A stretch of 64,000 nt of DNA from Cenococcum geophilum (GCA_050273025.1 CP158635.1:18352001-18416000); one strand, 5' to 3'. Positions 3,282 to 54,044 are shown, counted from the stretch's first letter. Program-made: numbers and translations. The notes: a model not told the origin generated them from the sequence alone.

Positions 3282-6200
3282 TGTTGGTTATATAAGGGGA
3301 TATTACGTAGCTACGGTTCGTAAATAGTATAATAATTGTTCTATGTTCTTCTTAAAGAAAGGGGTGAGGAACTTAAGGTTCCTTACTACGCTAGTACCGC
3401 GGCGGCACGTAATGGCAACTTGCCGCACGTAACGGCAACTTGCTATATATGACGGCAATATACCTTATATAGTAACCATTTACCTTTATTCCTAACACTA
3501 GCAACTTTTCTTTTATAGTTGCCATCTATATATATATACCGCTTAACTAGCGGAATAAAAATTAATCCTCCTTACTTACTATTGCCATTATAATATAAGT
3601 CTCGCTGTCCCAAAATTTGCCTCTTAGTATATGGTACTTTCTTACTTATAAGTTATGGGTAGGTATCTTATTAGTAGGGCCGCTAAGGCGCTAGCGGTAA
3701 GCGAGCCAATAGCAATTTTCTATCCTAGGGATAGAAAATCCTAATTGGCTGGTTTAAGTTAGGGTCTGCAAAATCTAACTAATTAGACAACTTTGATTGC
3801 CGGTTAAAGTTCCTAGATATCTTAAGACCTTATATAACTAAGAAATTTTTAGGGACTCCCTTTTAACCTAACCTTTAACTTATATATATAGAGTATTCGT
3901 ATTAATAAACGTCTCTAGTGCCTTATTTGGGTTCGCCTTCGTCATTACATCTACCAGGTTATCTTAGCTATTAATTTATTAAATCTTAAAGAGTTTTTAA
4001 CGCTCGTAGGATTGCCGAAGTGCTATAATATTAATTATAAGGCGCTTCTCCTTTATAATACCGAGCTTAACTAAACACTTATAGAGGGAAAATAAATCGG
4101 TACACACGATTGTAGGGATAATAGGAAATTTAAGTCGATCTATAATTATCTTTAGGGTAGTTCCAATTGCAATTACTATATTAACTCCGCCAACTATTCT
4201 ATATATCTCTAACGCTAAAACACTTTAGGTAACGCGCTTGCTCTTAGTTAAGCTCTAATAAATAAGATTGCTATAGATTATAAAGTTATTCTCTCTAGTA
4301 AATTCGTTCGCAATAATAATCTTATATCCTAACTAGGAGCTAAAATCTTTATTATTTATAAACAATCTATTAACAAATATAAAGAGCTTGGTAGTAAGAA
4401 GATTAATAGGCACGTAGAGTAGTCCCCAATTGAGATGGTTTATTTGCTAGAAAAGACGCTTATTTAGGGTAAGGATATTATTCTTAATTAGTTTCTAGTA
4501 TTAAGCCGTAATAGAGAGATTAAATAAAGCCTTAGGTTAATAGATAGAAGTAATATAAGCTTCGTAAGCACGTTACTCCACATATCCTTACTTTGGAGAA
4601 TTAACGTTAATAACGTCGATCTTCTTACCTTAACCCTTCTAGCGCAAAGCAATGGAATCCTTATTTAGGGAGAGGATGCATCTATTAAAGAGTAATAGTG
4701 TTGTTAAGTTAAGCTTTTTCTTTAGCTTTGCTATAAGATTTGCCTTTACTAGCTTATCCTCTTTAAGAGCTAAGAATTGGTCGTCTCCTAAGATAATTAT
4801 ATTATTAGTTTATATACCGACGATTCTAAATAGGGTTCCCGTAGTTGTAATAAGGAAGTAGGGATTAAATATAGAAGTAGTTATTAAAAGCTTCTCTTTA
4901 TGGTGCTTGCTATAGGTAGCCTACTAGTAAGTTCCTACCTCTGTAATTCTATATAATGGCTTAAGCACAACTATAATCGTGTCTTTAGGATACTGGTGGC
5001 GAATTTACTCCAGAAGGTATGCCAATATTAAGCGCTAAAGGTGCGTCTCTAATTGGGTGTAGGCTTAAGTAATATCTTATAAATAAACTGCTATTTTATT
5101 CTTTATTAAGGAGGGAGCTAATATAATAATAACTTGCTAACTAGCTCGTTAAATTATAGGAGATTGTATAAGAATTATCTCTTTACTATTATTGTTATAA
5201 CCTTAGATAATAAGCCTTAATTTCTTAAATAGGGCGTTAGTAGCTTTGCCCTTAATCTTATTAACTATTTTTAACTTAAAAATACAAACTCCATTAAACT
5301 TAGTAGGGTTATATTTCTTAAATTTAAAGACTCCTCTTGCGATAAGACCGTCGATCTCCTGCTTGTTGGATGCTTGGAAAGGAGCTCCTAGGGTTATAAT
5401 ATAACCTTTCTTTTAGAGCTGTTTTACGAGCTTAAAGTTAGCCTTCTCTTTAGCTGTTATAAAGGCCATTAATAACTTAACTTTATTCTTAATAGCGGCA
5501 ACAAATTGTTCTTTAAAATTAATAAGGTGTTAGCAATTTTATAATCCCTTTGGGCGACCTTTACCGCGTTATAGTTGTGGTATATCTACTATAATTATAT
5601 CGGGATTGTAGTTACCTTTTAGAGTATATTAATTGTGGTTCTCTTCTAGGGCATCTTCTAGGGCATCCTATAAAGGCTTAAAATTGTTATCTTTATAATA
5701 AGGCTTAATAACAGTTAAATAAAATTAGGTAGGTCCGTAAGGCATCTAAATAGTATAAGTTTAACTATTAATTATAATAAGTTAATATAGGCCTAACCAT
5801 CCTCCCCTTTTACGCTATACGCGTACTTTAGACTAAAGTGGCAGATCGAGCGTAGTTAAGGTATTTAGGCCATTTCTTATTCCTAGTACGTTATTAACCT
5901 AACGTATAGTATAGAGGCGTTGCACCTCCTTTATTGCCTTATAAATTGCTTTAGCTTATTATATAACGGAGGGAGATAGTAAAGAATTATTAGTTATTCG
6001 TAGGTAGGCGCTAAAGACTAGTAATATAGGTATAAGTCTATCCGGGCTAGCGGAATTATTAATAGCTTTAACAGCTATTTATAAGGTAAGTTTTTCGCTA
6101 GTATCCTTTAGTTTTAAAGAGATAATCTTATATACGTGGCGTAATGGCGCGTAATATTGCTTTACTTTTCTAATACTATTATATGCCTTAATAGGGACTT

Positions 6201-9200
6201 CCTTAACCTTAATTGCTATTGCCTTTATTTATTATTAGAACTTTATAGATAAGAAGTTCTTTCCTATATTATGGACAATTTAATTAGGGGGTCCTAGGTA
6301 GACATTAATTTAGTATAACTAAAGGGTATTCTATATATTCCTAGCTAATATATCCTTTAAGAATTGTGCAGCTTAAAAGGAAGTTAAGAAGTTAATAACT
6401 TAGAGTACTGGCTTACCGCTAAGATATATAATATTAACAATAATATAGAAGTTAAAGTTATAGTTATCTTTAAGGGTAAACTTAAATCGGCCAGGGGACC
6501 TCTAGTTTATTTGGTAGTAGTAGTAGTATTTTATAAGATGCTTAATTGCCTTAACCTTAACTTTATAGCCTACTTGCTAAAGAACCCTAAGTAATTAGTA
6601 AACTAATAGGTAACTAAAACGACGGTATAGTTGGCGTAACTCTAACTTAGTTAAATAGCTTTAAGCAATACTCTTTTCTAGTTATTAAAGGAGCAGCTAA
6701 GGGTAACCTTACTTACGTATAATAGGCACCCAATTATCTCCCTACACGAGTATATTCTTAAGGTTATTAAGCTTAACGCCTAGTTTGTTTATATCTTTAA
6801 TACAAAATAGAAATAGGGTGTTTATAGAAATAACGTGAAAAGTAATGTACCCTAAGGGGGTTTAAACCCTAATTGTGCTGAGAGAGATTGTAGTACCTTT
6901 ACCAAAACGAATCGTATATTGGCCTGCCGTTAAATAGTTAATCTAAACAGAGCTATTAAGCTACTAAAGGGCTTAAACTTAAGGTTCTCCTACTATAGAT
7001 ACTCCTGCGGCTTTAGTATCCGGTATAATACTATAGAAGATATTTGCCGAGTATCTGTTGTTAAAGGAAAACACAAAGCTCTCCTTTGGCTTATTAAAGA
7101 TATTTAACTTTATAATAAAATGGAGCGTAAATTAGTTATTAAGAATAATAACAGTTTGTATACCATTTACCTTACCATACTTAATAAAGTATTGGTTAGG
7201 TAAGTAGTCCTTAATTTCTATATCTATAAGGAGCTGTTCGGTCTTATTAACCTTACCCTTAAGGTCTTTTACGCCTTTATATTAAACTAGGAAGCTTTAA
7301 AAGTAGGCCGTAGTAACCTTATAATTTCTAATATTTCTTATACTCTAACGGAACTTGTTATATGCCTCTTTTCGCTTATTAAGGGAGTGTCTAGTTAACT
7401 AGTAATTTGGCTTCTTATAAACGTAGTACTTCTTTTAGCAATTACTTTAAAATAAACCTCTACCGGGACCTCCATAGTTGCCTTATAGTTAACGTTAATT
7501 ATACCCTCTTTTATATTCCCTACTATAGCTACTATATATTTAATTAGTCTAGTTATAATTATGTTGGTTAGGAATACTTAGTTGGGTAGGGTTTTTGGTA
7601 TAGAACTATTAAAATTCTTATATTCGCATTATAGTACCTATAGTAAAGCGTAGCTTAGTATATACTCCTTTAAATATATCTATAGGTTTATATAGCGCTA
7701 AGTTGCACTTAGGAACGCTATAGCATACTAAGATAACCTGGTCCCTTAGGCTGTTCTTATTTTAGTAAGTTTTAGTAAAGCCACGTTAGATTTTCTAAAG
7801 TTTATTAAAGAGTAGTTAAAGGCACTCTAAATAAGTCTTTATTAGGTTAAAAGCGATAACTCTTTAGAATATAGTCTCCTGCTATTTAGATATATAAAGC
7901 TAATAATTCTTATTAGTCTTAAAGTAGGCTCTAGTAAGCTAAAGCATTATATTAAAGCTATAGTTTTTACCTATAATATGGTCGTAATAGAATATTACTA
8001 CCTATCCCTTTAACATAATAGAGAAAGCGTAGTGGTACTAGTAGCGTTAAATTTTAACCTTATTACAACAGTTATAGAAGACCTATAGTTTTACTCTAAG
8101 CATATTATATAGTTTTTCTCTAAACTTCTTCTCTTTGTCTAAATATACCTTTATTAGATTTGTGACTTCTTATAGTAAAGGCTTACCGGTTAGCTAAAGT
8201 GGAGGAGGTAGAGGTAGAGCAACTCTAAGTAGGAGAGCACCTCTAGGTAGGGGAGTAGCTTTAGGTGGGGGGTTAGCGTTCTAGGGGTTTTAATATAAAT
8301 TAAAGTTGCCTTCTAAAGAATATAGGTTGTTTTTAGGTTTCTATAGTTAACATATAATCTTAGCTTCTGTCTATATTAGTTTATCTATACTAGTAATAAC
8401 GGCCTAAATATTACTAGTAATTAGGTTACCGTTCTTAGTAATATATACCCCATTCCTATAGAGAAAGTCTTAAAAATCCTAAATAATATTAACGTTGCTA
8501 AGTGCCTAGGTATTAGTAGTCTATCCTATAAAATCCTCCCCAAAATACTCCTATAGTTGTGAGTCGGCGTAGCATCTATTTTAGTAGAATATAATATAGT
8601 GTAAAAGAAAGCCGTTAACTTGTTTTACGGTATAAGTTATTATATTAAAGGCGAATTCGTCCCAGTCTTTATTAATAAATTTCGTGTGCTTAGCTACCCT
8701 TGGTGGTAAGGAGTCTTTCCAGTTATTTAAAGTAGGCGTAGCCATGTTTTTGGAGGAAGGGAAGTGTTATTAGTATAGGGATTGTCGTTTGGTACGCGTT
8801 CGTGACGTATATTTATAATTATAGGGCTTAGGACTAGTTTTAGCCTTAAATCGTAAAGACTTATAAAGCGTGTTGTTCTGCGTAATAGACGCAAGAATCT
8901 GTAATTTTAGAAAGGCTTAGGACTAGTTCTAGCCTTTAAATCCTTAGATTTATAGAAGAGTTTTATTTAAGGTTTAGGACCAGTTCTAACCTTAAAAGAT
9001 AGCTTCCTCTAGCACAAGTAGCACTAGTACAGTGGCTTATCTCTTCTTAGTAGAATACCTTACTGTTCTATAGTATAACAGTAAAGTTAACTACTAATTA
9101 GTGTTGGTTATATAAGGGGATATTACATAGCTATGGTTCGTAGATAGTATAATAATTATTCTATGTTCTTCTTAAAGAAAGGGGTAAGGAACTTAAGGTT

Positions 9201-9297
9201 CCTCACCACGCTAGTGCCGCGGCGGTACGTGATGGCAACTTGCTGCACGTAACGGCAATATGCCTTATATGGTGACTATTTGCCTTTATTCCTAACA
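3282..9297 (-). mobile_element. Ty1/Copia LTR retrotransposon C1 (RIPed), inserted in the A1 integrase
   Basis: TG...CA LTRs 3282-3497 and 9102-9297; TSD GTGCC at 3277-3281 and 9298-9302; integrase-before-RT order; RIPed GxQTDD motif at ~4800-4820 on the minus strand. Confidence 0.96.
3706..3811. other. Shared palindromic module, copy in Copia C1 (hairpin 1 3706-3748, hairpin 2 3789-3811)
   Basis: CCAATAGCAATTTTCTATCCTAGGGATAGAAAATCCTAATTGG and AACTTTGATTGCCGGTTAAAGTT. Confidence 0.85.
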
Positions 9298-15200: not shown

Positions 15201-18200
15201 TTCTAAGAATTACTATAAGGAAGGAATTATCTAGGTAGGGACTAAGGGTCCTTAAATACACAACCGTACTCCTATGAAATCCTCCTTATATATAATATAT
15301 ATACACTCTATTTGCTCTATTGTAAATTACGCAGATCCTATAGATTATACAGATCATATTATGTGACCTTAGCTACTATTCCTCATTATATAGTTTTACT
15401 AAATCTATCCTAAACCGTACTCTTATTAACCAACTAGCTTCTTCTGACTCTTCTCCAAGTAGTCGTAATATTGTACTTAAAGCGTCCGTAATAAGAAATG
15501 TCTTAGTAAAACACTCGATAGATGAATTCCGACGCTTTGACCAAATTCTACTAAATTTTGCTAGCTTAATTAACTTCTGCCAAATTCTGCCAGATTAATT
15601 AAATTCTATTAAAGTCCGTTAAAGACCGCGTGTGTATATGCGCACGCATCGACCACCAAGCCCCTAACTATTTAATTATATAATTCTCTTATTATTCCTT
15701 TCTCTTCTTTACGTAATGTCTTGTTCTTAGCAAGAGCTATATACCCTTAAATTTAGATAGAATTTATATCATTCCTTTAAATCTTCCCTAAAGTCTCTCC
15801 GCGCCCTTATATTATATTACATTAAGAATAACTACTATTAAAATAGCAAACGAACTTAAACCTACTGCGTTAACTACGAGTATTATAGCCCTAGTTAGGA
15901 AACAGTTAACTATAATACAACAGCTCTTTATAGATGCTTTGGCCCAATAGCAAGCAATATTAAAAGCTTAGTATTAGTAATTAATGGGAATAATCTATAA
16001 AGAACTCTGTAACCTTAAAGCACTTATATTAAAGACCCTAATAATAACACCTATAAATAAAATTAAAATAACTATATACGAACTTAGCCTGTTAAATATA
16101 AACCCTAAATTAGTAACGGTAACTTAACCTATACCTATAATAAACCTAATACCTACTATAAAATCTAAAAGGCTTTCTAACCCTCTAATATTTAATGGAA
16201 ATTAAAATAACCTACGTCCCTTTATAACTAAGCTCTGTCTTAAACTTTTAATAAACTATAACTAATACCCTACTAAAGCTAGCAAGATTAGCTATAGAAT
16301 ATCTTATTTAAGTAAAGACGCTATATAAACTATAGACCTATTCTTCTATAACGGCACCTTTATTATTTTTAAAATCTTTATCTCTCTACTAAAATAAATA
16401 TATAATAACGCTAGCCGTAAATATACAGCTGTTACTAAACTTAAAAACCTATAATAATAGAACCAAGACTTTACTAGCTTCTTTTTGGAATTTTTAGGCC
16501 TTATTAATAAACTAGATTAGAATAAAGCCACTAGAGTTACTACTCTCTATTAAGCTATTTTAGATAAAATTAGAGCATAGTTAGTAGGTAAAGAACTGCT
16601 AAAGGACTTACCCGAATTTGCTATAATATATTAACGAATTAATAAGGACCTTTAATATAATAAATAGACTTATTCCTTAAAGCCAACTATACCTTATGTT
16701 TAAAACTCTACGAAACCGGTATATACCCTAAAGCGCGACCTATCTCTAAGACCTAGAAGCCCTATATATAACCCTATAGACCTTAATACTAACCGATCCT
16801 ATATATTCTTAGGAACTAATAAATAAAGAACTTAAGCTATAAATGGAGAATGCTTTAGATGCGGTAAAAAGGGATATATTTAAAGGAATTATTAAACTTA
16901 CCCTTTTGAAAAGGTCTAATGTAGTTCCTCTTAGTCCTTAAATTATACTTATTCTATAAATTATACTTAATTTCTATAAAGCGTCTTACCTTTAGTTAAT
17001 TTAGAAAATGAATTATTCTAAGGCTAAGTCGCGCCTTAGGATAAGAAGTGGAAGAGTATAAGTATCTAAGCTCTTCTAGCGCTGATATATAATATAACTC
17101 CCTTAATATACTTAGCGAAATTTAAATACTTAAAAAATAGAAGGAAGTATAAATCCTTATAAATAGCGGAGCCACTAATATAGGCTTTATTAATACGAAC
17201 TACGCGAAAACTTAACGCTTAAATTTAAAGAAACTTAATAAGCCCTAAGGACTATAAGGCTTTAATAGTAAGCCTTTAATATACGGCGAATTAATATACT
17301 ACGCTTTTATAAAGATGCGGATAGGCAAATACCTTAAATATATTTCCCTATTTATAACACCCTTAAAGCATTATAAGGTAATACTTAGATATAAATAGCT
17401 AAAATAATATAACCCTTTAATTAGCTGGGTTAAAGAAATACTAAAATTCCGTATAACCTACTATTAAAGTTATTACTTAAAATACCACTTGCCCTATAAA
17501 TATACACATAACTATTTAAATTTAATATAATATAAATTACCCTTACTATAAACCTTAAATTAATATAATAAAGTTATAACTACCAATCGCGGTAAAGAAT
17601 GCGAAGATAATATATTTAAACCCTTTAAAATTTATATAGTATAAGCCGCACCCTTTTATTTATTAGTAAGAAAATGAGACTATAAGATCTTTACTATAAC
17701 ACTAGAAGATATTAAGAAGGTATTAAAACTAAAGCAATATATTAACCCCCAACCTCTTATACCTAAAGAATATTATAATCTAATTAATATGTTTAAGAAA
17801 CAATTTATAGACCAACTACCCCCGTATTAAGATAAGCATAATTTTAAGATAGAACTTAAACCTAGTATAATGCTAAAGTTTGGCCCGTTATATGGTATAT
17901 CGCAAGAAGAGCTGCTTATAATGCGATAATACCTTAAAAAACACCTAAAGAAAGGATTTCTTCGCCCTAGTTAATTACTATTTACCTTACTTATACTATT
18001 TATTAAGAAACCTAGAGGAGGCTTAAGGTTCTATATTAATTATTAAGCTTTAAATATAATTATAATTTAAAACTAATACACAATTCCTCTGCTTTAAGAA
18101 ACGCTTAACCGCTTAAAAAAAGCATAATACTTTATAAAGCTTAACGTAGTCACTGCTTTTAATTAAATCTATATTTATAAAGGAGATAAAAAGTATATAG

Positions 18201-21600: not shown

Positions 21601-24600
21601 CCGATTTAAGTTCACCCTTTATAAGGACCTTAACTTTAACTACTTAGTGTACGTAGATATTATATATATTAACGGCAGTCTAGTATTATATATAATTGAT
21701 AAGGTAACCCGCTATTAAGCCGCCCGTTAGTTGTAAAATATATCCATAAAATATACTTGGGATATTTTACGGACCTGCTAGATCGATATATACGTTAGAC
21801 CTCCGCAGTATATCACCTATAACGCCGGTAGGAACTTTATTAGCAAGGAATTCTAGCAGTATACTACGGCCATGGCTATATTAACAAAAGCTGTTCCAGT
21901 TAAGGCGCATTGGTCCGTTAGGCTTATTAAGTAAGCTTACCTAGCCTTATAGAGAGCTTACTAGATTATTACAGACGAATGCAAGGACATCTAAAAGGAA
22001 CTGGCTCTATAGATGGCCGTAAAAGCCGTTAACGACACTGCTGGCCCGGACGGACTAGTACCTACCCTCTTGGTTTACGGAGCCTACCTAAGGATAAGCA
22101 ACCTAGGCCCTCCTACCCCGTCTATTACGGAACGAGCAGCTACAATATAGAAGGCAATAACTAAAATAGTCAAGCTACGGGCCAAGTAAGCTATTAATAA
22201 CGCCTTGTACTACCGCAACGGACCTAACACGACCCTAGTACACGACCTCCCACTTAACTCTGAAGTCCTTGTATGGCGTAAAAGCGGCAGTTAAAATGGA
22301 CCTTATTATCTACTGGCCGTAGAAAACGAGACGTGCTGCGTATAGCTTCCTAGTGGGCCAACCAGCTTTAGAAGCACGTCCGTAAAACCCTACTTTTGGC
22401 CCAAAAATACCTATAACGTCAAACTAGACAAACTGGAAGCACCCGTTAAACTAGACGAACCGAAAGCACCCGCCAAATTAGACAAACTAGAAGCACCCTT
22501 ACCTACCCCAGAAGTCCCCTAGAAACCCACTAAACCTACTAAACCTACCGTAAAGTATAGTTGAGGACGCCCCTAAAAGCACCCCATAACTAAGAATACT
22601 ATAATAGAAAATTACCTAACCTCCGCAGGAATATCCGTAAGGTAATCTCCGCCTATAGATATATTAGTTCTAGTATAGGAAACCCTGTTTACGGACTTAT
22701 AACATAAAGAGATTAATAGACTACTTAAAAAGGGTATCTTTGCGGTTATAATAGAGAAAGACGTCCCGTAAGGCGTCCGTATATTTAACTTACGCTTTAT
22801 TAATAAGATTAAGCACCCTAGTACTAATAAAGCCTTTAAGAAATTAAGGCTTATTGTATAAGCTTATAACGACAAGGGAAAGAACTTAGTCCTTACGCAA
22901 TTGCCTATAATTTAACGAGTTAGCTAACGAATTATACTTATACTTACGCTGGGACTACAGTAAACTAAACCCGTAGCCCTATACTTACAGGATATCTCGC
23001 AAGCCTATATACAGTCCAACACCTACCTAAGTAGGGACATCTTTATACGACCACCCCGTGAGCTTAACCTATAACTAGGAATAATTTTATAGGTTATAAA
23101 ACCTCTTTACAGAGTACTAAAAGCTAGGAACCACTAGTTTAAGATATACCACCAGCATCACGTTAGTAAGCTTAAAATGGAATAGTTAACCTATAACCCC
23201 TGCCTCCTATACAGCCTATTAAACGGCCTTAGTATTATTAGACTTTAAATAAACAATACCCTATTCCTAGCAGACTAGACCTTTGCGGATGCTAAAGAAA
23301 CTAAACTATAAAAGGCTAAGTTCTTAGTAAAGCCGTAAGAGTAGTTAACTAAGTAAAATCTAATTAAGTTTAATAGAGGCCTAATTATATAAAAGGGTAA
23401 CCTAATTAAGCTAACTTAGGAACGCTAAGCTTAAAACCTAAAGCTTATTATAGTAAAGCCTACGGACCTTACTAGTTCCCGCGGAGAGACCTATAAGACC
23501 GTAAATATAAAGGACTAATACGCTATATAGCGTATAAGAGGCGCCTATATTACCATAGTCTGCTAACCCAAATCTACCTACGACTTATCCTTTACGGCCT
23601 AGGTAGTAGATCCATAAGAAGAAAATATTAAGCAGCTTAATAAGCGCATTTAGTAGCAAATTAATAATGCAGTAAGGGGACTTACTTTTATACTACTAGA
23701 CCTAAATTCCCTTAGCCTACTGGTATTTATAAACGCCTCCTTTGCTAATAATAAAGACCTATTATTACAAATTGGCTTTATAATTGTACTTATAGACCGC
23801 AATTAGGACGTAAATATACTGTACTAGTCTTCAATTAAGTATAAATAAGTAACCCGTAGTGTACTAGCTTCTAAACTATATATACTAGCTTATGGATTTA
23901 ATATAGCAGCTGCAATTAAATTAACGGTCTAGAAGATTCTATAACTGGAGCAGTTACCTCTGGTTTTATACACCAATTTAAAGTCCCTTTACGACTGCCT
24001 AGTTAAACTAGGTACGACATAAGAGAAGAGGCTTATAGTTGACCTAATGTGCTTACGTTAGGCCTACGAACGACGTAAGATTATGAAGGTTAAATAGATT
24101 AGCAGCGGAGATAACCTAGTAGACGCCATAACTAAGGCAAAGCCGTGTTAAGCCCTTAAAACCCTAATTAATACAAATAAGCTTAACCTAAAAGTTATAG
24201 AATGGGTAGAACGGGACTAATGGAGCACCTATGGTATATCTACGGCCCGTTAGAAGGCCGTATAACTCGTTATATGGTATAGGTAGAAAACGGTAGAAAG
24301 CTACGGTGGAACTTGGTAGACTCACGTAACCTACTAAATTTTACAGGGTGGTTAAATTAACCAATTACAATTTTCTATCCCCGGGATGGAAAATCGCCAT
24401 TGGTTCGCTTAGCACTAGCGCCTTAGCGGCCCTTAAAATCTAACTTATAGCTCGTTTACTGCCCGTTAAAAGGCCGTATAGTTTATTTTACGGACCGTAA
24501 GTAGAACTTACGGCTAGCTTGGGGCACCGTTTGGAAGGCAGCCTAGACGGCACCTTAGGGAGATTTCCTATATATTTTCTTATGTGTTTTATGGTTCTAT

Positions 24601-24868
24601 TAAGGCAATTACGGAGGCTGTATATAAGTGGTTTTATTTTCCAAGTACCGCTAGTGTATAATTATAGCACCTGGTGTATAAACGCGTAAATACGCGTTTG
24701 TGCACTAACTACCTACGTGCTAACTAATTAGGGGGGAGGCGCATCAGTATATAGACCACGTAGTCTGCTTTATATAATCGACAGTCACCATCCAAACAAG
24801 CATACAATACTACATGTATTTCGTGCCCGTGGATACGACTCACTTATGCTATTAAGTTAGTACGAACA
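18614..24868 (+). mobile_element. Ty1/Copia LTR retrotransposon C2 (RIPed), inserted in B pol
   Basis: 214-bp TG...CA LTRs 18614-18827 and 24655-24868; TSD ATTAC at 18609-18613 and 24869-24873; protease IDTGA (~21020), RT DISQAY (~22990) and GLQTDD-like (~23240) motifs. Confidence 0.97.
24361..24432. other. Shared palindromic module, copy in Copia C2 (hairpin 1 only)
   Basis: CCAATTACAATTTTCTATCCCCGGGATGGAAAATCGCCATTGG followed by CTAGCGCCTTAGCGGCCCT, the reverse complement of the C1 copy. Confidence 0.85.
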
Positions 24869-26739
24869 ATTACTTTTTAAAAATTATTTAGCTATTAGTA
24901 AACTTAATAAGGAAAAACGTAAGACTTAAATAGATTACTAAATATAAATAAACTTTTAACGACCTAAAATATTATTTTATAACTACTTTAATTCTCGCCT
25001 ACTTTAATCTGGACCTTAAATATATTGTTAAAATAAACTTATTTAATTATATACTAGGAGGAGTATTATTACAATATAATAAGAACGGCGAGCTACGCCT
25101 AGTAGCCTTTCTCTTCCGGAAACTTACCCCTACTAAATTAAACTATAAGATATATAATAAGGAACTACTTATAATTATTAAATGCTTTAAATAATAGCGT
25201 CTAAAACTTAAAGGATTGTTATTCCTAATACGCGTATTAACAGACTATAAAAACCTATAGTACTTTATAACTATAAAGTAATTAATATAGCGCCAAATTC
25301 GTTAGGCCGAATACCTCTTATAATTTAACTTTAAGATTACGTACCGACCTAGTAAACTTAATTAAAAGCCTAACTTATTAGTATAATAATTATAAAACTT
25401 ACCTATAAACGCCTCTAATAAACGGATTATAAATTAATTATAAATTCTACTGCCCCCTAAACGCTTTAAGAAACTACGCCCTATATTTTTAAATATAAAG
25501 CTTAATAAAAATAAATTAAAAATTAATAAGTAGGATATAGAAATTAATAAATTAATAGAGCACAAATATAAGAATAATCCTTAGATAGTAGATATAATAA
25601 AAGCAATTTAAATAGGGAAATGGCAATATAAGGATATTACACTCGCTAAATATAAAATCTATAATAATCGGTTATACTATTAATAGAAGATAGTAGTCCC
25701 AAATTCCAAACCCTTACGATTTAAAATACTTAAATTTATACATAATTCCCCTATAGTAGGGCATCCTGGCCGTATAAAGACCTATAATATTATCTAACGA
25801 GTATATTACTGGCCTATAATATATAACTATATATAAAAATACGTTTAAGTATACAGAATATACATACGTGGGAAGACCTCTTATGTAAAGAAGTAAGGAG
25901 TACTTTAACTATTACTAATTCTAATATAAAGATAGCGAGATATCTTAATTAACTTTATAGTTAACCTACCTAATAGTAATGGGTTTATAAATATTATGGT
26001 AGTTATTAACTATCTTATAAAAATACGATATATAATTCCTATAGACTTAATTAATGCAATATTAGTAGCCAAATGTTTTATTAAGTACGTCTTTAAGCTA
26101 TATAGACTTTCTAATTTAATAATATCCTACCGCGGAAGCCAGTTTATTTTAGACTTTTAGTAAGCCCTATATAAACGATTAAGCATATAAATATAACTCT
26201 TAACTATATTTTATCTAAAGACAGATAGTTAAACTAAAACTATAAACGCGATTATAGAACAATACCTATAAATATACTGCTCCTACCTATAAGATAACTG
26301 GGAAAAGTAGCTACCTTTAACTAAGTTTACTTTAAATAATATAAGAAACAAATTAATAGGCGTAACGCTATTTTACGTAACCTACAAATAAGACCCTTAA
26401 CTTAGATTTAAACCACAACCCAAAATCAATACAACAGGACCTATAATTAAGAGGATTTAATTAATTAACGTGTATAACTTTACTAATTAAATAAAGCAGT
26501 TAACGAAACTATTATAAAGTAAATTAGCATACGCTTAAATAGTATAGAAATAGCATATAAATAAAGAATAAGCTCCCGCGTAGGACTTTAAAAAAGGTAA
26601 TATAATTTACCTAAATATAAAAAACCTAAAGACTTAATAACCCTTAAAGAAACTAGACTAGAAGTTTACGGGCCTATACTAAATTAAGAAAAAACTAAGC
26701 CTATACGCTTATAAGCTTAAACTGCTAATTAAGATAAAA

Positions 26740-29700
26740 TATTATAGTGCTATAATAAAGTAGACTAAATAACTACGTTATAGCATAAAGAGGGGAAGAA
26801 GGTAGAAAGGGGGTATTGTATATAAATAGTAGGGCTAGCCGCTAAGTCATTAGTAGTGGGCTAGCTAATATTAGGAAATAGTACAAGACAGTATAAAACA
26901 GTATACGTTAGGTTAGTGCCGTAACAGTACTCTTCTCCCCTAAATAGTTTAGTCCCTAAACTAAATAAATAACTTAAAAATAGGCAGTATACAGGATTGC
27001 CTATTTTTTACTATAAAGATATTAGTTCCGCTTACCGCCCTTAACTAAGCTAATAGCGATTTTCTATACCGGGCATAGAAAATCCTAATTAGTTAGTTTA
27101 GTAAGTAAGGTTAGCAGAACTTTATACCGCCACCTAAATTAATCCGCATGGCGTTTTTTAGTAAGAGTTTAGCTAATTAGATAACTTTAACCGCTAGTTA
27201 AAGTTTTATAACATCTTAACTACTACAAATTTTAATACGGTGGTTAGCCGCAACTTTAGTATGACTTTTTCTTATCTTGTGCCCAGTCTGGGGGTCCTAG
27301 CTTCTTAGGGTATTACTTATAAAAGCGCTATATAGCTTATTTATAACCCTTTAGGTCTTTTTTTTAGCTGCTAAGTTATATCCTTATAATATTTCCATTT
27401 AATCTTATAAGTTAGGCCCTGGGGGTCTTTATTATATATATTAAGGATTTTCTTAAACTCCTATTTATCTTCTATATTGCCGTTATTATCTCTCTCTCTA
27501 CCACTTATCCTTATATATTACGGCGCTCTATAGTATTAATATTTACTTAGCTAGGGATCTCTTTAGCAGCCTAGAGGCGGACCTTAGATATATAAAAGAA
27601 TTTATTTACTTAAATATGGTTTAGGAGGTCTACTATAACTACCCCTTAGTATACTGCAAGTATGGGGTATAGGCCGTCCCATTTATCGTCCTATTTCTTC
27701 TTAAGTTTTTTTATCTTTATATTTTCTAAGCTAACTATAACTATATCGCCTTCATAGAATAACGCGCTCTTATCCCTATAGGTATTAGTATTATCTTTAT
27801 AGCGTTACTGTAAAATCCGGGCTAGGGCCTTAAGCTATATTAATATCCGCTTAAAGCGGTTGGCTATAGAGTTTACGCAAAAAAACTCCTTCTTTACTTA
27901 TACTAATAGTGTTAATAGGTAGGGGCTAGTAGGCTTAATTCCGAGGCGAGGGTTAAAGCTATAGTTTATAAAAAAATGGGGAGATACCTGTGCTCTTATT
28001 AACTTGGTTATTTATAGTAAACTTAGTAAGCGGTAGGTAGTTAACCTAGTTATTTTATATAAAGCTAATAAAGGTATAGAGGTATTTATTTACGGCAGCG
28101 TTAATAATTATAGTTTAGCTGTCCGTTTCTAAGTATTAGGCTAAGCTTAGTTATAAGGTTGTCTTAAGGCGTTTACTTAGTTATTGCTAGAAGTCGCTAA
28201 TAAATTATATACCGTAATTAGAGATAATTGTACTTAGTACATTATAGAGCTTATATACGTTATTAATAAAGCTATTAACTAGCTCCTTTATTAAGAGTCC
28301 TATTACTAAAATAAGGTGTTATATTTTAGTTAAGCGGTTTATAATAATAAGGATATATTTATATATTTTACTATAGTATTAATATACCGGTAGCGTTATA
28401 ATATAGTTAATTAAGATATTAGTTTATAGGCAGGTAGGTAATTTTAATAGCTTTAAAAAACCGGGTAAGGTAGAATAGGGGGTCTTAGTATAAAAATATA
28501 GGGTATAGTCTTTAATAAAGGTAGCTATAAACTAGGAGATTCCTAGCTACTAGTATATTTGGTTTAAAAGGTTAAGAGTTTTAACCCAGCTAGGGTAACT
28601 AGTAGGGCCGCTACTATAAGAGCGATAGGTAACTTTTAGGTAAAGGTTTAGGGCGTTAGGGACAAAGAGATATTAGCGGAAGTAGATTTATCTATTAATA
28701 ATATTATATTCTAACTTATTACAACAAAGTAATTTCCTAATTTTTTTTAGCTAATAGTAAGCTTTCTAATTATATAGGGCCGCTATTATATCTCTTACGA
28801 GTTTATTCTCCTAGTATTCTAACTAGATTAACTTATCTAGTAACTTTTCGGCTATTTTAGGGTCTAGAGTGGCTATAAACTCCGTATTATTAGAATTATA
28901 GGACTTATATAGTAATTCTTCTAAGATTATAGGGTTAACTTTTTAGGGCGGTATAATAACTTAGGCTTAGTAGTGGAGGTATTTATTATTAGTGTCCTTA
29001 GGCCTTATTTCTAGTAGCTAGCTTAGGGTATTAGGGAGCGTAGCTTTGCTATTAGGTCTATATATAACTATAAAGTTAAACTATAAAAGGGACTCTGCCT
29101 ACTAGACTTAGCACTAATTTAGCTGCTTAGTAATTATAAACGTCTATAGATTTTTATAGTTAGTAATAATTTTAAACGGCTCCTTAGTCCCTTATAGCTT
29201 AGGACGCTATTTCTTTAAAGCTTTAATAATAGCTAAGAGTTCTTTATTATAGATCTTATAGTTATACTCTAGCGTAAAGTGCTTTATAGAGAAGAATACG
29301 ACCAGTTTTAATTTTCCATCGTTATTATACTAGGAAAGGACTCCGCTAAAAGCCTAATTTAATACATCTGTCTCTACTACTATTTTCTTTATATAGTTAT
29401 AGTATGCTAATACTGGTGCTAAAGTAAAGGCTCCCTTAAGGGCCTTAAACAATTTAGCTTGTTTTAGTCCCTATAGCCATCTAATATCCTTCTTTAGGAG
29501 TTTTATTATAGGTATAGCGATATTAGAGTAGCCTTAGATAAATCGTTAGTAGAAGTTCGCAAAGCTAAGAAATTATTATAGTTCTTTAGTTAATATCGGG
29601 TCCTTTTATTCCTATAAGGCCTGTACCTTTTCAGGGTCTATAGTTATGCTATTAATTAAGATAATTAAGCTAAGGTATTTTATTTTAGTAGAGTAGAACT

Positions 29701-32700
29701 TAGACTTATTAATATTAATCTAAAGTCTAGCATTACTAAGTCTTTAGATAACTTTATTTATATACTTAGTATACTTAGCATATATTTTAGAAAAGATAAG
29801 GACGTTATTAAGGTAGGTAGTATAGTAGCTATTAAGGGCGTTATATAGAATATAGTTAATATAGTTTTAAAATATAGTAGGTGCGTTATAGAGGCCAAAT
29901 AGTATAATTAGTATCTTATAGAGTCTAAACCGGGTAATAAATACTATAAGCTACTTATGGCTCTTTATAATCCGGATCTGGTTAAACGCAGTAATTATAT
30001 TAAGTTTAGTAAAGTACTTAGCACTATAAAGTACGTTAAGTGTCTCGCGGATTAGCGGTAATAGGTACCGATTTTTAATAGTAACTATATTTAGGCCTTA
30101 GTAGTTATAGTAAATTCGTATACCGCTGCCAGGCTTAGCAGTAAGGAGGAGTGGTATAGTAGCTAGTAAGGTTAATTTGCGGATAAAACCCTTATCTAGT
30201 ATCTTATTAATCCACTTCTTTATATACCTAAGTTTAGTAGGTAAGAGTAATCTATTTTTATAGTACGGGGCCTAGTTTCTAGAGATAATCTTAATTTTAT
30301 GGTCCTATAGTTGGTAAGGGGGCAGCTTATCTATATTCTTAGGGAGGAAGTGCTTAATATATTTACGAAACTCCTCTAGTAGGCGTTATAGAATATCTTT
30401 ACGGGTTAATTCTAGTTTGCTTTTTAGGAATTTTTAATATTAGTATTAACTATCTTCCAACGTAAAAGCTTGGGTTTAGTTTTTAGATTTATTTTAAGGA
30501 AGTTATAAAAATAGGGGGGGAGCACTTTATAGGCTTCCTTTATTATATAGTCGCCTTCTACTAGCTAGCGAAAAAACCTTTCTAATAGGTTTAGTACTTC
30601 TATTAGGCCTATAGGCAGCTCTTCCAGCAGCTATTAGTGCTTATCTTATTTAACTAGTTCTACTAGCTTCGCTATATAGATCCTTATTACCTTTACGTCT
30701 TTTTATTTATAGAACTAGGTGAAATTAATAGTATAAGTGTATTTAATATTGTCTAGGTTAGGGCGTATTTAGTTCTTCGGTGCTATAGCTAAGCTAGTAT
30801 AGCTTAGTTAACCTAGGGGGGCGGAAATAAGGCAGTAGCCTTATATAGTACGCGCGGGAGATAGGTATAAGGTTAGGCGTTACAGTAGCGCGGTTTCTAT
30901 TATCTAGGTTTTAGTAGTTCTATAGCTAATCCTTACTATAACGCGAGCTATAATATGCGTATATAGTATATAGCTTAGTTCTAAGTATTAGACTAGGTAG
31001 CTAGGGTTTAAATAGTACCTAGGTTAGGGTTAGATTCTTAGTAGTAGCGGTATAAAGCGGACCTTATTTCTAGGTCTTAGCAAGGCTAGCTAGCCCGTTA
31101 TTTTAGTCTTAAGTACTAAAATAGTCCAGTTTTCCACTGTCTTATTTCTTTGCAGCTATATAAGCTCCCCTTTATTAAGAACGTCTTTTACTATTAGGGC
31201 TTTATATATAGTCCTAGGTACTAGGCTTAGTAGTGCTAAGTATCTATATAAGGCGTCCCTACTACCGTTAGTTATCCCCTATAGGAGGTAGTGCCTAGAG
31301 TAGTAGTCTAAGTTAAAGTAGATCTTAAGTTTCCTAAAGCTAGGACGGGGCTTATACTTTTAAAGCTAAGGCATACCTAGGATAATTAGGGTAGTAGGTA
31401 AGAGTTTAATAATAAAAAAGAGCATAGCTTTAGTATAGAGGCCGATTAACATTTAGGTGGTAAAGTAGTCCGTAATAAGCAAAGTTAGGATACTATTTAT
31501 AAGGCGCAGTGGCCTAGGTACTAGTAGCTTCTTAGTTATAATATTATACTTTCTTATAATAGACTTTGCGTCGGCAAATGCTATTATAGTACTACTTAAG
31601 TCGACTAGGCTTACTATATTAATATAAACTTAGGGGTATAGGTTATGTAATAAGAAGAGTTAGGTTTAAATAAGGATTAATTTCTTATTACTATTTACTA
31701 ATCTAAGATTAAGTAGTAGCTTACTAATAGAAAGGACTAATTAATTTAGTAATAGGGACCTAATCTTCTTATCTTCCTCCTTATATAGTTTAGACCCTTA
31801 AATACGACTTAGTCTAAAGGTTTACCTTTTAATAACTAGGGTACGGGGCTGTCTTAGCAGGGCGGTCTAGTGTCCGTCTAGCTAGCGGTATTAGTTTTAG
31901 TCTTAGTTAGGGTATAGGAAGATAATACCTCGCTAATAACATAGCTATATTTGTATTCGCTAGTACGGAGTCGCCAATACTAGGCATTATTAACGGGTTA
32001 GGCTCCTATATAGGGTATGGTTTAGAGTAACTAAGCTATAGGGTTAAAGGGGGGGAGTCGTCCGCCGCGGCTATAATAGGCTCTATAGTTGCCGCGTTTA
32101 TAATAAACTCTATAGTCGCCGCGTCCGCGGTTATTAGTTCGCGTTATTTAATAGGGTGGTATTAGGACTAGGTTTACTATCTTAGTGGGGTTATAGGCGT
32201 CCTTTTAGTGGCTAGGTAGGCCATAGGCAAGGTATAGTCTATTATTAACGCGGCGCTTACGCTTTATATCTAAGATTCTATTAAGGTCTATAGGTTCTCC
32301 AGTTACTGCTAGGGTTAGGGTTAATATAGGGGCAGAGGCTTAGGTAGGTAGGCGGTAGTTAGCGTTCTTCTTAAGGTTAGCTTAGTGTGTATAGTTTATA
32401 AGGTTCTTAGCAAATATATCTATCTACTTACTTTAACCTATATAGTCGCTATTATTAATTTTATAGGTAAGTTTAAGTACCAGCTCTTCTATCTTTAGAG
32501 AGATAAACTTTTAGAGTAGGTCCACCTTCTATTTATCTATTTTCTTAGCGCGGACTATTAGCTTATTAAGCTCACCCTTCTAGGACTAGTAATTACGCTC
32601 GCCCTAGGAAAAATAGTTAAGCTTATTCTTTGTAACCTAGGTTATATTAAGGACCTTATAGTAGGCAGTAAGGTCTTTAAGTATATCTTTTTTAGTGGGC

Positions 32701-33657
32701 CATTTCTACGCAGATATATTGTTTAGGTTCTTATATATAAGCTTTAGGCCCTACTTAATAAACTTATAGGCCTTATCCTCTAGTATATCTAAGATATAAA
32801 GGATCTGGGACTAAACTATATTAAAGTAGTCCTAGTCCCGGTTAAAGACTCCCTTAATCTTAATATGCTAGGTCTTAAAATTAGCTTATTATTCTAGCGG
32901 GGTACCTTTTCCGCTAAATATTAGTGGGTCTTTAGATCTCCGTTTTTTCTACTAGGTTATTACCATTATTATAGGGGTCAATTATTTTAGAACGGCGATA
33001 GTCTCTATTTAAGAGTTAATAGTTCCTATTTAGAAAGCAATAAGGGCACTAAGGTTTTCGTTAGCTTTCTTATTGGCGGTATTTATATTATATATATACT
33101 ATAGTCCTACTTTAATATTATTAAGGAACTCATTAGTATAGTTAATAAGGGTAAGGTAAACTTTACTAGGCTTAAAGGTCTTAGGGTACGGTAGGGAGCA
33201 GCGGATTGTTTACGCGATATTAGGGTATATTTCTATAAAGAGGTTTACAAAAACGTTGCGGGGGTTCTAGGTTTTAGCAATTTTGGCATTATTAGTGTCG
33301 CCTATTTAGGCGCTAGGTAAAAACTAAGGATTATTCTAGGACTATACTAGGGATATATTAGTTTTAGCAGAGGCGCGTATAGGTTGCAATTGCTTTAGGG
33401 CGGAGGTTAATTAGCTAGGGTATAAGGAATTAGTAATCACAATAGGGCGTAAATTAAATATACTATAAACTATTATAGTGCTGCAATAAAGTAGACTAAA
33501 TAACTACGTTATGGTATAAAGAGGGGAAGAAGGTGGAAAGGGGGTATTATATATAAATAGTAGGGCTAGCCGCTAAGTCACTAGTGGTGGGCTAGCCAAT
33601 AGTAGGAAACAGTACGAGACAGTATAAAACAGTATGCGTTAGGTTAGTGCCGTGACA
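26740..33657 (-). mobile_element. Ty3/Gypsy (chromodomain-bearing) LTR retrotransposon D (RIPed), inserted in the B integrase
   Basis: 187-bp LTRs 26740-26926 and 33471-33657; TSD TAAAA at 26735-26739 and 33658-33662; minus-strand RT motifs KYFTKL..AFNQIRI (~29970-30020) and YLNN (~29810); chromodomain-like YxIKWK at ~27400. Confidence 0.96.
27009..27205. other. Shared palindromic module, copy in Gypsy D (hairpin 1 27050-27092, hairpin 2 27183-27205)
   Basis: CTAATAGCGATTTTCTATACCGGGCATAGAAAATCCTAATTAG and AACTTTAACCGCTAGTTAAAGTT. Confidence 0.85.
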
Positions 33658-34092
33658 TAAAAATATATCCGACGTTTTATATAAACTTACTGTAACCTTT
33701 AAAAGGTAAACCTTTAACTCGCGAAGTGCCGCCGCTATCTTCTATAATTATTAATAAGGGCAATAGTTTTTACTTTATTAACTTAATTAATAATATACGA
33801 TAGAAAATATAATCTAAATAATTTAAACTTCTTATTAAATAGGAAGGATATAAAATATAAACCTAGAAAACCTATAACTAGATTAAGGCTAACGCGCCTT
33901 CCTTAGTAAAAGAATTTTATAAGGACTATTCTTTGCGGCCTACTTTAGCTAAATAGACATAATATAAAGGCAAATAACTGCTACCTAATATAAATATATA
34001 AAACATAGTAGCAGAAAGCTCGAAATTAAAAAAAAACTTAAAATATATTATAATGTTTATAATATAATTATATAATACATAAAATATTAAGG

Positions 34093-34274
34093 AACTTTAA
34101 CCGCCAGTTAAAGTTATCTAATTAGTTAAATCCGCCTTACTAAGACCTACTATAAAGATATTAGTTCTGCTTACCGCCTTAACTAAGCTAATAGCGATTT
34201 TTTATCTTAGGGATGGAAAATCTTAATTGGCCTATCTAACGATAGAATTAGTAAAACTCTATACTGCTACCTAA
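34093..34274. other. Shared palindromic module, copy in Gypsy B (hairpin 2 34093-34115, hairpin 1 34188-34230)
   Basis: AACTTTAACCGCCAGTTAAAGTT and CTAATAGCGATTTTTTATCTTAGGGATGGAAAATCTTAATTGG. Confidence 0.85.
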
Positions 34275-52235: not shown

Positions 52236-52240
52236 TAAAC

Positions 52241-54043: not shown

Positions 54044-54044
54044 G

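Follow-up and report, generated by a model that had tools for sequence, protein, structure and literature searches.

Palindromic modules in four retrotransposons

The window analysed here is a stretch of 64,000 nt from Cenococcum geophilum (GCA_050273025.1 CP158635.1:18352001-18416000), and positions are counted from its start. Four different elements in it, two Copia elements of the GalEa clade and two Gypsy elements, each carry a copy of a palindromic module, in every case between pol and the polypurine tract (PPT). The first Copia, C1, occupies 3282..9297 on the minus strand (LTRs 3282-3497 and 9102-9297; PPT within 3498-3517), and its insertion site is the Gypsy element A1. Its main unit, M1, spans 3676..3776 on the plus strand, antisense to the host, and is composed of a hairpin core (3706-3748) and a conserved left flank, GGGCCGCTAAGGCGCTAGCGGTAAGCGAG. 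A second palindromic unit, M2, lies pol-proximal to M1 at 3773..3840, also on the plus strand, with its palindrome at 3789-3811 and a flank of the CCAATTAG type. The second Copia, C2 (18611..24868, plus strand; LTRs 18611-18827 and 24652-24868, 92% identity), has landed within the RT of the plus-strand Gypsy; its own pol keeps to one frame from 18803 to about 24220. Relative to the host, its M1 (24352..24433, minus strand) is oriented as in C1, and M2 is missing. Direct repeats of 37 nt, at 24241-24277 and 24457-24493, enclose this copy in a cassette (24241..24493, plus strand), and each of them contains the palindrome TACGGCCCGTTAGAAGGCCGTA.

The minus-strand Gypsy occupies 26734..33657 (LTRs 26734-26926 and 33465-33657, 92% identity; PPT 26930-26941; RVT_1 and RNase H at about 30130-29110). 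Its copy, D, has M1 at 27009..27137 and, pol-proximal to it, M2 at 27165..27237 (palindrome 27183-27205), both on the plus strand and M1 thus antisense to the host. The plus-strand Gypsy, host of copy B, extends over 15494..34835 and has been interrupted twice: its RT (17699-18649) is followed by the C2 insertion, RH-IN (24869-26733), the insertion of the minus-strand Gypsy, and a final segment (33658-34325). The 5' LTR starts at 15494 and the 3' LTR at 34337, behind a PPT at 34326-34336; 15494-15811 matches 34366-34683 at 88%. Here M1 (34148..34274, plus strand) is in the same sense as the host, the rarer orientation, designated B. M2 (34060..34131, minus strand; palindrome 34093-34115) is on the opposite side of M1 and inverted on the window strand, and is again pol-proximal.

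The preliminary description had placed the imperfect palindrome in C1, C2, D and B, had reported the second palindrome in C1, D and B, and had seen neither in elements A and E, and the counts agree with it on each point. The core pattern RTTTTYYATN7ATRRAAAAY matches at 3715, 24370, 27059 and 34197, four matches against 0.69 expected (sd 0.84), a number reached in 0 of 100 shuffles; homology covers the M1 spans given above, that of C2 running from 24433 to 24352, inverted on the window strand. For M2, three sites were counted where 0.00 were expected, and none of 100 shuffles did as well. A search with a profile had also been proposed; a profile HMM made from 101 related copies fully matches the window at the four M1 places only and has no match in A or E. 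Two weak partial matches fall in the LTRs of the minus-strand Gypsy.

Assignment of the Copia hosts to GalEa relies on published features of the clade (available part of PMC5445492): no PBS, the hairpin-site sequence CHSeq1, short LTRs, a single ORF, and the motifs KSRLVI, QTDD, CQPEA and ADxxTK. In C1 and C2, CHSeq1 (CTGATCAGT or CTAATTAGT) directly follows the 5' LTR, as CTAATTAGT in C1 and at 18828 in C2; the host LTRs are 216-217 bp; and gag-PR-IN-RT-RH lie in one frame, with the GalEa motifs in RIP-altered forms. ADAMTK is intact in one metagenome locus (L032). CHSeq1 (ACTGATYAGT) stands right behind the 5' LTR in all 11 Copia checked, namely C1, C2 and 9 metagenome Copia. Pfam yields just a weak rve match on the Copia host (E 0.04), and the assignment therefore rests on the published motifs. 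For the minus-strand Gypsy, Pfam identifies RVT_1 (E 1.6e-12), RT_RNaseH_2 (2.1e-19) and RT_RNaseH (9.3e-16), and the RT and RH-IN of the plus-strand Gypsy are homologous to it by tblastn; the hosts of D and B are accordingly classed as Gypsy/Ty3 elements, a group marked by the RT - RNase H - integrase order and by RVT_1 and RT_RNaseH domains.

Architecture and distribution of the module

The module is 60-130 nt long, with an imperfect palindromic core of about 60 nt. The inner dyad of the core is GATTTTCCATCCC-G-GGGATGGAAAATC, with 13-bp arms, bracketed by two inverted CCAAT boxes (AGCCAAT / ATTGGCT). As a hairpin, M1 thus has a 13-bp inner stem with an unpaired centre G, a conserved 3x3 internal loop (AGC/CTA), and a 7-bp outer stem, AGCCAAT/ATTGGCT; its asymmetry gives the module an orientation. 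It folds strongly on both strands (z -2.7 to -4.9). Type I copies (C1, C2) have a conserved flank of about 30 nt on one side of the core, and in type II copies (D, B) the arms of the palindrome are extended. M2, which often joins the core, has a core of the CCGNCGG type and contributes a third CCAAT box together with the conserved CCAATTAG; it is always pol-proximal, with the same side towards the module. Across 145 copies the two inverted CCAAT pentamers are kept or RIP-changed to CTAAT, and their context presumably matches the flank consensus of CCAAT boxes (NF-Y/Hap). Conservation is of sequence, beyond mere pairing, and far exceeds the pentamers. At one stem position 133 copies have C:G, 6 have G:C and 2 have A:T; these double changes preserve the dyad and suggest that it is constrained.

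These 145 distinct copies come from a metagenome scan of RIP-like fungal contigs that gave at least 130 loci and 161 sites; the loci were chosen for carrying the module, so frequencies derived from them are biased. The module is near-universal downstream of pol in GalEa Copia: it follows within 450 nt in 39 of 41 Copia pol C-termini of these module-selected loci, and it is present in both GalEa Copia of the window (2/2). In 9 Copia with LTR pairs it lies 194-274 nt inside the 3' LTR; LTR pairs thus put the module beside or within the 3' LTR. Hosts were assigned to 53 of 101 copies, by a rule that places copies downstream of pol by construction, and comprise Copia in orientation A (33) and B (8) and Gypsy in orientation A (10) and B (2). 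One orientation is thus seen in 43/53 assigned copies and the inverted one in 10/53; the inverted module belongs to two lineages, each multi-copy. Several Gypsy families carry the module. Depending on the family it is found upstream of the PPT, as in most families, or inside U3, and among the 145 metagenome copies it is just 3' of pol or in U3 wherever a host can be assigned, which supports the earlier proposal that an equivalent position is kept. Tandem double modules occur in two loci (L053 and L100), and another copy (L070) forms the centre of an inverted repeat of about 850 bp.

Exchange between Copia and Gypsy

Copia and Gypsy have had separate histories since early eukaryotes. Over 60 nt, the window copies are identical at 42-49 positions and differ by 10-15 transitions and 1-4 transversions. 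Copies from Copia and Gypsy differ by 2-4 transversions, the remaining differences being RIP-type transitions, and identity across the superfamilies before RIP would have been about 93-97%. Outside the module, no nucleotide similarity was found between the Copia and Gypsy elements of the window. C1 and C2 themselves share 84% identity over the module and 66-73% over pol. The few transversions, together with the absence of other nucleotide similarity, support the proposal of the preliminary description that a cis unit was exchanged between retrotransposon lineages.

In an LTR of the E family (L076), the module occupies the exact place where the window E LTR has four copies of GGCAATCTAA and six repeats of the ATTCTGCC type; the difference between the two LTRs is a U3 cassette swap. 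In the C2 family, variants without 24263-24454 were found in sequencing runs, and joints that skip the segment occur in DNA and in putative RNA assemblies. The 37-nt direct repeats and skipping joints are read as a signature of transfer. Cross-superfamily identity, placement on both sides of the PPT, both orientations, flanking duplications and "empty" variants all document that the cassette has moved between element families. Since the same palindromic module stands just before the downstream repeat of otherwise unrelated Copia and Gypsy elements, it is probably a control element passed between unrelated retrotransposons.

Two conventional identities for such a unit find little support. A miniature DNA transposon (MITE, foldback or Helitron-like) inserted independently into each element would account for the palindromic structure, the occurrence in either orientation and the copy centred in the 850-bp inverted repeat, and yet it is a very improbable source. 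The palindrome is internal to the unit, whose conserved left end (GGCCGCYAAGG...) does not recur in inverted form as its right end (...ATTGGYT); no target-site duplication, as judged by eye from alignments, is consistent across families, and the 37-nt repeats of the C2 family are not of the transposase type. Half-cores outside the module numbered 0/111, insertion points in assigned hosts are confined to the 3' zone of retroelements, and although 10 of 23 copies on long loci have no recognisable pol nearby and cannot be placed in any element, none has MITE-like ends. The copies thus do not look like the scattered MITE that the preliminary description had named as its counter-case.

A tRNA- or SINE-derived segment, or an embedded Pol III unit, was considered because the flank GCGCTAGTGGTAAGCG resembles a D arm; by eye, there is a possible 4-bp D stem with an AGTGGTA loop and, after it, a 5-bp stem where an anticodon stem would be expected. 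ARAGORN, however, finds 0 tRNA genes in the window and 17 loci, and the families have no conserved T arm or B box in common, which makes this derivation extremely improbable. Nor does the module match any Rfam family, including ribozymes, miRNA precursors and known cis-RNAs: the search suggested earlier gave 0 matches at gathering score in the window and none over the module on 8 loci at E up to 5. An unrelated hairpin in one locus (L098) matches miRNA models below threshold.

Possible functions of the cassette

No published description of the module was found, and the nearest relatives are analogues. Plant Sireviruses have palindromic repeated-motif (RM) boxes and a PPT-flanking inverted repeat (Bousios et al. 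2010, PMC2829016, in the part available); the dyad-symmetric boxes, in LTRs and internal regions, have been read as cis-acting transcriptional activators. According to that account, these boxes resemble the module in being dyad-symmetric and highly conserved within otherwise divergent non-coding regions, in occurring both in U3, ahead of the TATA box, and internally near the 3' end, and in a CGG/CCG-type core, found here in the second palindrome, CCGNCGG. However, they are 11-17 bp long, form high-copy tandem arrays and are restricted to one plant Copia genus (PMC2829016), whereas the module is 60-130 nt long, present once or twice per element, near-identical in Copia and Gypsy, and fungal. 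The dyad and, in some families, the U3 position are thus shared, but the length, the lack of arrays and the fungal hosts make the RM box an analogue only. Within the GalEa elements of fungi themselves, a Conserved Hairpin Site (CHS) and an "extended CHS" have been described (Donnart et al. 2017, PMC5445492, available part). Like the module, the CHS is a conserved hairpin-forming non-coding element common to distant families within a species, and the host clade is the same; unlike it, the CHS consists of two 9-nt arms at the PBS position behind the 5' LTR, whereas the module is at the 3' end, has another sequence and is also in Gypsy. The available description of the CHS (PMC5445492) makes no mention of a 3' element.

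Retroviruses and endogenous retroviruses offer further comparisons. Inverted CCAAT boxes in the RSV LTR and NF-Y sites in human ERV9/LTR12 are CCAAT enhancers; similarly, paired or repeated CCAAT boxes in U3 would bind a host activating factor, but the retroviral sites are short and confined to U3, whereas here the boxes bracket a long conserved dyad that is mostly upstream of the PPT. Among RNA hairpins, the MPMV CTE likewise lies between the last ORF (env) and the 3' LTR and has a symmetric internal loop, and DIS dimerisation hairpins are likewise palindromes able to pair between two genomes. Both are orientation-dependent and limited to a single lineage, in contrast to a module that is inverted in some lineages and has DNA-type motifs.

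Among the functions listed in the preliminary description, a CCAAT-bracketed protein site appears to fit the sequence best. We tentatively read the module as a cis-regulatory cassette of modular build, in which paired CCAAT boxes surround an inner dyad and which LTR retrotransposons have exchanged with one another; this remains somewhat short of an even bet. It would be a discrete element of the U3 / 3'-untranslated zone in the LTR retrotransposons of a RIP-active lineage of filamentous ascomycetes, and would act as DNA, much as an enhancer does, by offering a binding platform tolerant of inversion. The CCAAT boxes would probably be bound by the CCAAT-binding complex of the host, and the inner dyad by a dimeric factor; binding may raise transcription or keep the chromatin open at the element. 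Elements resident in the same genome could pass the cassette on through recombination or template switching. In favour of the cassette, the module of one Gypsy family is part of U3, with four ATTCTGCC repeats on one side and, about 95 nt downstream on the other, a TATA-like box; the core is often accompanied by ATTCTGCC arrays and by the second palindrome with its third CCAAT box; and the density of ATTCTGCC rises from 0.046 per kb to 0.78 per kb within 200 nt of modules, a 17-fold enrichment. The multiple copies of the two inverted lineages suggest that inversion is tolerated, and orientation independence rests on those two only. Several observations argue against the cassette. In most families the module is upstream of the PPT and so is not copied into the 5' LTR; at about 5.5 kb from the promoter, an enhancer would need long-range or looping action, which to our knowledge is not established in these fungi. 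Orientation is conserved in most assigned copies, sequence conservation extends far past the CCAAT pentamers, we know of no factor for the inner dyad, and the "empty" C2-family variants suggest that the cassette may be dispensable. All copies seen are RIP-mutated, and selection therefore cannot be read from them.

In every context the genomic RNA, too, contains the module, at its 3' end and never in the 5' leader, and an RNA role fits this equally well. A hairpin about 23 bp long could be cut by Dicer, could be recognised by an RNA-binding protein of the host that promotes export or stability, or could serve dimerisation or co-packaging. Two RNAs could pair through the palindrome, and sharing it would let the RNAs of different elements interact and recombine. 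Such a role, which we regard as possible but rather doubtful, agrees with the strong folding, the pairing-preserving double changes, a palindromic core nearly identical in either orientation, and the conserved hairpin at the PBS position that GalEa elements already use (PMC5445492, available part). One RNA run includes reads with the module, and the read depth of two putative RNA assemblies peaks there, though these peaks may merely reflect a module common to many families. Against it, the asymmetric parts (30-nt flank, internal loop, ATTCTGCC arrays) are complemented in the inverted lineages, yet those multiplied; conservation is not of pairing alone; recurrent CCAAT boxes and short tandem motifs typify DNA-level control regions; and the module region shows no complementarity to the 5' leader longer than 7-9 nt. 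An unlikely alternative is that the palindrome has no function and spreads selfishly through hairpin-provoked template switching or recombination, and that it survives only where insertions are tolerated, in the two non-coding zones next to the PPT. Recent spread of this kind could alone explain the high cross-family identity, and would be consistent with both PPT sides and orientations, with the C2 repeats and "empty" variants, and with Gypsy families that have no module (A and E in the window). It is harder to reconcile with near-universality in GalEa Copia whose pol genes have diverged so far, with conserved partners (M2 in its fixed placement and ATTCTGCC arrays enriched nearby), and with dyad-preserving changes; long palindromes are normally unstable, and the persistence of this one suggests a benefit.

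Among LTR retrotransposons, conserved modules in non-coding sequence are known from single lineages; the Sirevirus boxes (PMC2829016) and the GalEa hairpin site (PMC5445492) are examples. Here one long module is near-identical in two superfamilies and occurs on both sides of the PPT and in both orientations, which is direct sequence evidence that unrelated retroelements within one genome trade control modules. The module points to a host factor or an RNA interaction needed by many elements. We think it improbable that the palindrome is a "common currency" through which unrelated Copia and Gypsy RNAs pair, are co-packaged and recombine across superfamilies, or through which all recruit one host factor; if so, the cassette would both cause and record a cross-superfamily network of control-sequence exchange in one fungal genome. 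The module profile also serves as an easy landmark for locating 3' ends when heavily RIP-mutated elements are annotated. If many elements do depend on a common host factor or RNA interaction, the module would offer a way to approach how such elements become active in the fungi whose genomes they have enlarged.

Host elements in the nested retrotransposon pile

Positions 1497-54049 of the window form a deeply nested pile of transposable elements, with RIP indices that are extreme to about 54 kb and normal beyond. Signatures of RIP are strong over 1-54 kb (TpA/ApT 1.70, (CpA+TpG)/(ApC+GpT) 0.38) and give way at the genic end to values of 0.77 and 1.31, respectively. The nest was mapped from self-similarity, from tblastn searches using stop-masked translations of the window itself, and from Pfam where this was effective.

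Two Copia elements, C1 (3282-9297, minus strand) and C2 (18611-24868, plus strand), have LTRs of 216-217 bp and the PR-IN-RT-RH order in one frame. Motifs characterising fungal GalEa Copia elements are given by Donnart et al., and C1 and C2 contain RIP-altered versions of them (PMC5445492). Directly after the final A of the 5' LTR, both elements carry CTAATTAGT (18828-18836 in C2; about 9093-9101, minus strand, in C1), which is the RIP form of CHSeq1, the GalEa conserved hairpin site (CHS); ACTGATYAGT is carried by nine of the nine metagenome Copia elements checked among the matches listed. Pfam found only a weak rve match (E 0.04) with stop-masked pieces of C2 and no match with stop-masked translations of C2 in three frames or of window positions 1-3700 and 28501-34103 (plus strand), nor with the RNase H pieces of the metagenome loci L029 and L032. 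The failures on stop-masked translations are likely due to RIP damage. Because Pfam gave almost nothing, the Copia assignment rests on domain order and published motifs.

The other two hosts are Gypsy elements. The host of module copy D (26734-33657, minus strand) has LTRs that are 92% identical, RVT_1 and RNase H domains recognised by Pfam, and a polypurine tract (PPT) at 26930-26941. The host of copy B runs on the plus strand from a 5' LTR beginning at 15494 to a PPT at 34326-34336 and a 3' LTR; its RT is split by the insertion of C2, and its 3' part by the minus-strand Gypsy. Once that 6924-bp insertion is subtracted, RNase H and the module are about 1865 nt apart, matching the 1905-1941 nt of related metagenome elements. 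Elsewhere in the pile, C1 splits Gypsy A1 (1497-3275 and 9304-15493), which is itself inserted in an LTR; Gypsy E (35772-41748) interrupts the 5' LTR of a second A copy (41748-47378); and 52233-54049 holds a third fragment of A. At the left edge of the window, 30-319 is tandemly repeated (period about 81 bp, shifted copies 82% identical).

Four module copies in four elements

The preliminary description had reported a palindromic module in the 3' non-coding region of two Copia and two Gypsy elements, and direct reading of the sequence bears this out. A RIP-tolerant core pattern has exactly four matches in the window, at 3715, 24370, 27059, and 34197, compared with a chance expectation of 0.69; this number was reached in 0 of 100 shuffles. 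Transition-tolerant local alignment with strict scoring, together with sensitive self-blast, places the first unit, M1, at 3676-3776 in C1, 24433-24352 in C2 (inverted on the window strand), 27009-27137 in D, and 34148-34274 in B. Element mapping confirms that each of the four copies has a different host element and sits between its pol and its PPT, as had been claimed. The second palindrome, said to accompany the first in C1, D, and B, was likewise recovered there, with three matching sites in the window versus 0.00 expected; this unit, M2, spans 3773-3840 in C1, 27165-27237 in D, and 34131-34060 in B, and its pattern has no match in C2. A profile HMM found no copy in elements A or E of the window, in agreement with the first reading. 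A weak match to a flank of the module (the type I flank, profile positions 4-42) alone, without the hairpin, is seen in the LTRs of the minus-strand Gypsy at 26834-26870 and 33566-33603 (E 0.0085 and 0.00036).

Over the central 60 nt, in which 42-49 positions are common to the four copies compared, there are 10-15 transitions and only 1-4 transversions, with 2-4 transversions in Copia-Gypsy pairs. Given the strong RIP signatures of this region, the transitions are most plausibly damage that arose later in nearly identical sequences. Apart from the module, the window self-comparison shows no nucleotide similarity of the Copia elements to the Gypsy elements; the module is 84% alike in C1 and C2, whose pol genes are only 66-73% alike.

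Relatives, anatomy, and position of the module

A single scan of metagenome contigs with the un-mutated core yielded at least 130 loci. Among the matches listed, most come from three related datasets, with contigs of up to 197 kb, and a few from three other soil datasets; the module-bearing contigs are about 36% G+C, are polymorphic for C/T and G/A, and encode ordinary fungal genes. No intact ORF adjoins a module in these loci, in which the only ORFs of at least 450 aa are host genes (TRAPPC9, a phosphatase, and a P450). The profile HMM recognised 161 sites, representing 145 distinct copies, all of which can be oriented by an asymmetric internal loop and the centre base (among the matches listed). 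The module has two forms. Type I, to which C1 and C2 belong, has a conserved flank of ~30 nt (GGCCGCYAAGGCGCTAGYRGTAAGCGAG) at one side, with outer flanks of many kinds, and type II, represented by D and B, has extended palindrome arms.

Across the 145 copies among the matches listed, an inner stem of 13 bp gives way to a 3x3 internal loop (AGC against CTA) and then to an outer stem of 7 bp, AGCCAAT/ATTGGCT, with weaker pairing that continues to about 29 nt per arm. Conservation covers the sequence itself, beyond pairing, and one stem position occurs in three complementary states (C:G in 133, G:C in 6, and A:T in 2). Hairpin folding is strong on both strands (z -2.7 to -4.9), which is trivial for a palindrome. 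M2, of about 55 nt, consists of a palindrome between CTGACCAATTAGAC and CCTAGATATCTTAA and contains a third CCAAT; among the matches listed, it turns its CCAATTAG side towards M1 in 29 of 31 cases, and it is pol-proximal wherever the host is known.

Individual loci show further arrangements. L053 (6065-6150) and L100 (176-261) contain an additional module copy, some 80 nt away from the first, with the variant core CCATACCGGGTATGG also present in window copy D. The module of L070 (at 6001) is centred in an inverted repeat of ~850 bp (arms of about 200 bp, 79% identity), with no recognisable pol within 6 kb of the module. On the apparently un-mutated contig L098, a second hairpin (399-487) lies about 170 nt from the module and scores far below threshold with miRNA-precursor models on both strands (35 bits; gathering score 97).

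A host could be assigned for 53 of 101 module copies among the matches listed. Type I copies in Copia are antisense to the host (orientation A) in 33 cases and inverted (orientation B) in eight; the seven type I copies in Gypsy are in orientation A, and type II copies in Gypsy are divided between A (three) and B (two). Of the 48 copies without an assigned host, 25 are in loci of at most 625 nt, and extra queries of the other 23 brought up pol-like matches no more than 4.5 kb away in 13 cases and none in the remaining 10. Among these matches, a module is present no more than 450 nt downstream of 39 of the 41 distinct Copia pol C-termini, a biased sample since the loci were chosen for holding the module. 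No half-core was found outside a module (0/111, among the matches listed).

In elements with visible LTR pairs, module position differs by family. Nine Copia elements have it 194-274 nt inside the 3' LTR, and the Copia family with orientation B has it between pol and LTR. Its centre precedes the 3' LTR by 149 nt in the type II Gypsy L022. Another Gypsy family (L037, L038, L045) has the module inside the LTR, in the order PPT, LTR start, four ATTCTGCC units, hairpin, type I flank, TATA-like box (about 95 nt on), and LTR end. L076 belongs to the E family (89% identity to the E element of the window) and has a type II module in U3 exactly where the E LTR of the window has four GGCAATCTAA units and six ATTCTGCC-type repeats. 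ATTCTGCC is enriched 17-fold within 200 nt of modules among the matches listed; its occurrences in the window are all in LTRs or LTR-like sequence. Repeats of 10-11 nt, of the ATTCTGCC and GGCAATCTAA types, form arrays in the U3 of Gypsy LTRs (41440-41580, 35909-35974, 34395-34493, 15584, and 54199-54397), the one at 54.2-54.4 kb being inverted at the edge of an AT-rich block, and the array motif also flanks the module in many metagenome families.

Identity, transfer, and possible roles

Several identities fit poorly. The preliminary description had allowed for a known MITE with its own target-site duplications; this is very unlikely, as the unit has no terminal inverted repeats and, where a host is assigned, is confined to one retroelement zone, and inspection of the alignment by eye revealed no common target-site duplication around the module. 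A tRNA or SINE is rejected, with no tRNA found in the window or in 17 metagenome loci, and the Rfam search that had been proposed matched the module to no family, at gathering score in the window or at E up to 5 in 8 loci. The GalEa conserved hairpin site is ruled out as its identity, since C1 and C2 carry that site separately at their 5' ends. Two described systems come nearest: in plant Sireviruses, the dyad-symmetric RM boxes together with an inverted repeat flanking the PPT (PMC2829016), and in fungal GalEa elements, the CHS and 'extended CHS', non-coding hairpins common to families within a species (PMC5445492). Unlike the module, neither is a long unit shared by Copia and Gypsy. The full-text literature search found no description of such a unit.

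Signs of transfer are seen in C2, whose cassette is bounded by 37-nt direct repeats. More palindromes of the TACGG-N-CCGTA type surround this module (24241-24262, 24457-24478, and 24489-24518), two of them forming part of the direct repeats. Joints that skip 24263-24454 are present in public-run contigs (two putative RNA assemblies, with a similar form in one DNA assembly) and in one RNA read; thus, filled and empty forms of the C2 family coexist. The flanking duplications would be the expected remains of two template switches during reverse transcription, which do not by themselves explain the inverted lineages. A candidate internal promoter TATA just upstream of the 3' LTR in the C2 family is a product of RIP, because the least mutated copy, L043, reads GTACATAGG.

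A role for the hairpin in RNA is a serious if unlikely rival to control at the DNA level. It would fit the constant location of the module in the 3' end of the genomic RNA, and module-bearing RNAs are shown to exist: one true RNA run gave 68 reads at 80% likeness, five of which cross the hairpin with the type I flank. The strands of reads over the module are mixed, in numbers too few to use, and no RNA run is listed for the C2 stretch among sequencing runs. In two assemblies guessed to be RNA, depth is 162-173 in the C2 module bin, 49-80 in the D module bins, and 0-16 in pol, peaks that may only reflect a module common to many families. Pairing of the 5' leader or CHS with the module, for cyclisation or self-priming, was considered in 11 elements and gave only 7-9-nt matches at inconsistent places. 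That the module is a functionless hitchhiker, the other serious rival, seems quite improbable.

We tentatively prefer, at somewhat less than even confidence, the idea that the module is a DNA-level control cassette bound by host factors. The chief difficulty for this idea is the location of the cassette upstream of the PPT in most families, which means that it is not copied to the 5' LTR. Pointing to such control are the three conserved CCAAT boxes and two dyads, the association with short tandem motifs otherwise found in U3, residence in U3 in some families, the swap for a different U3 repeat block seen in the E family, tandem duplication on occasion (L053, L100), and the survival of inverted versions in lineages that later multiplied. 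The obvious candidate to bind the cassette would be the CCAAT-binding complex, whose flank consensus is presumably matched by the CCAAT flanks of the module.
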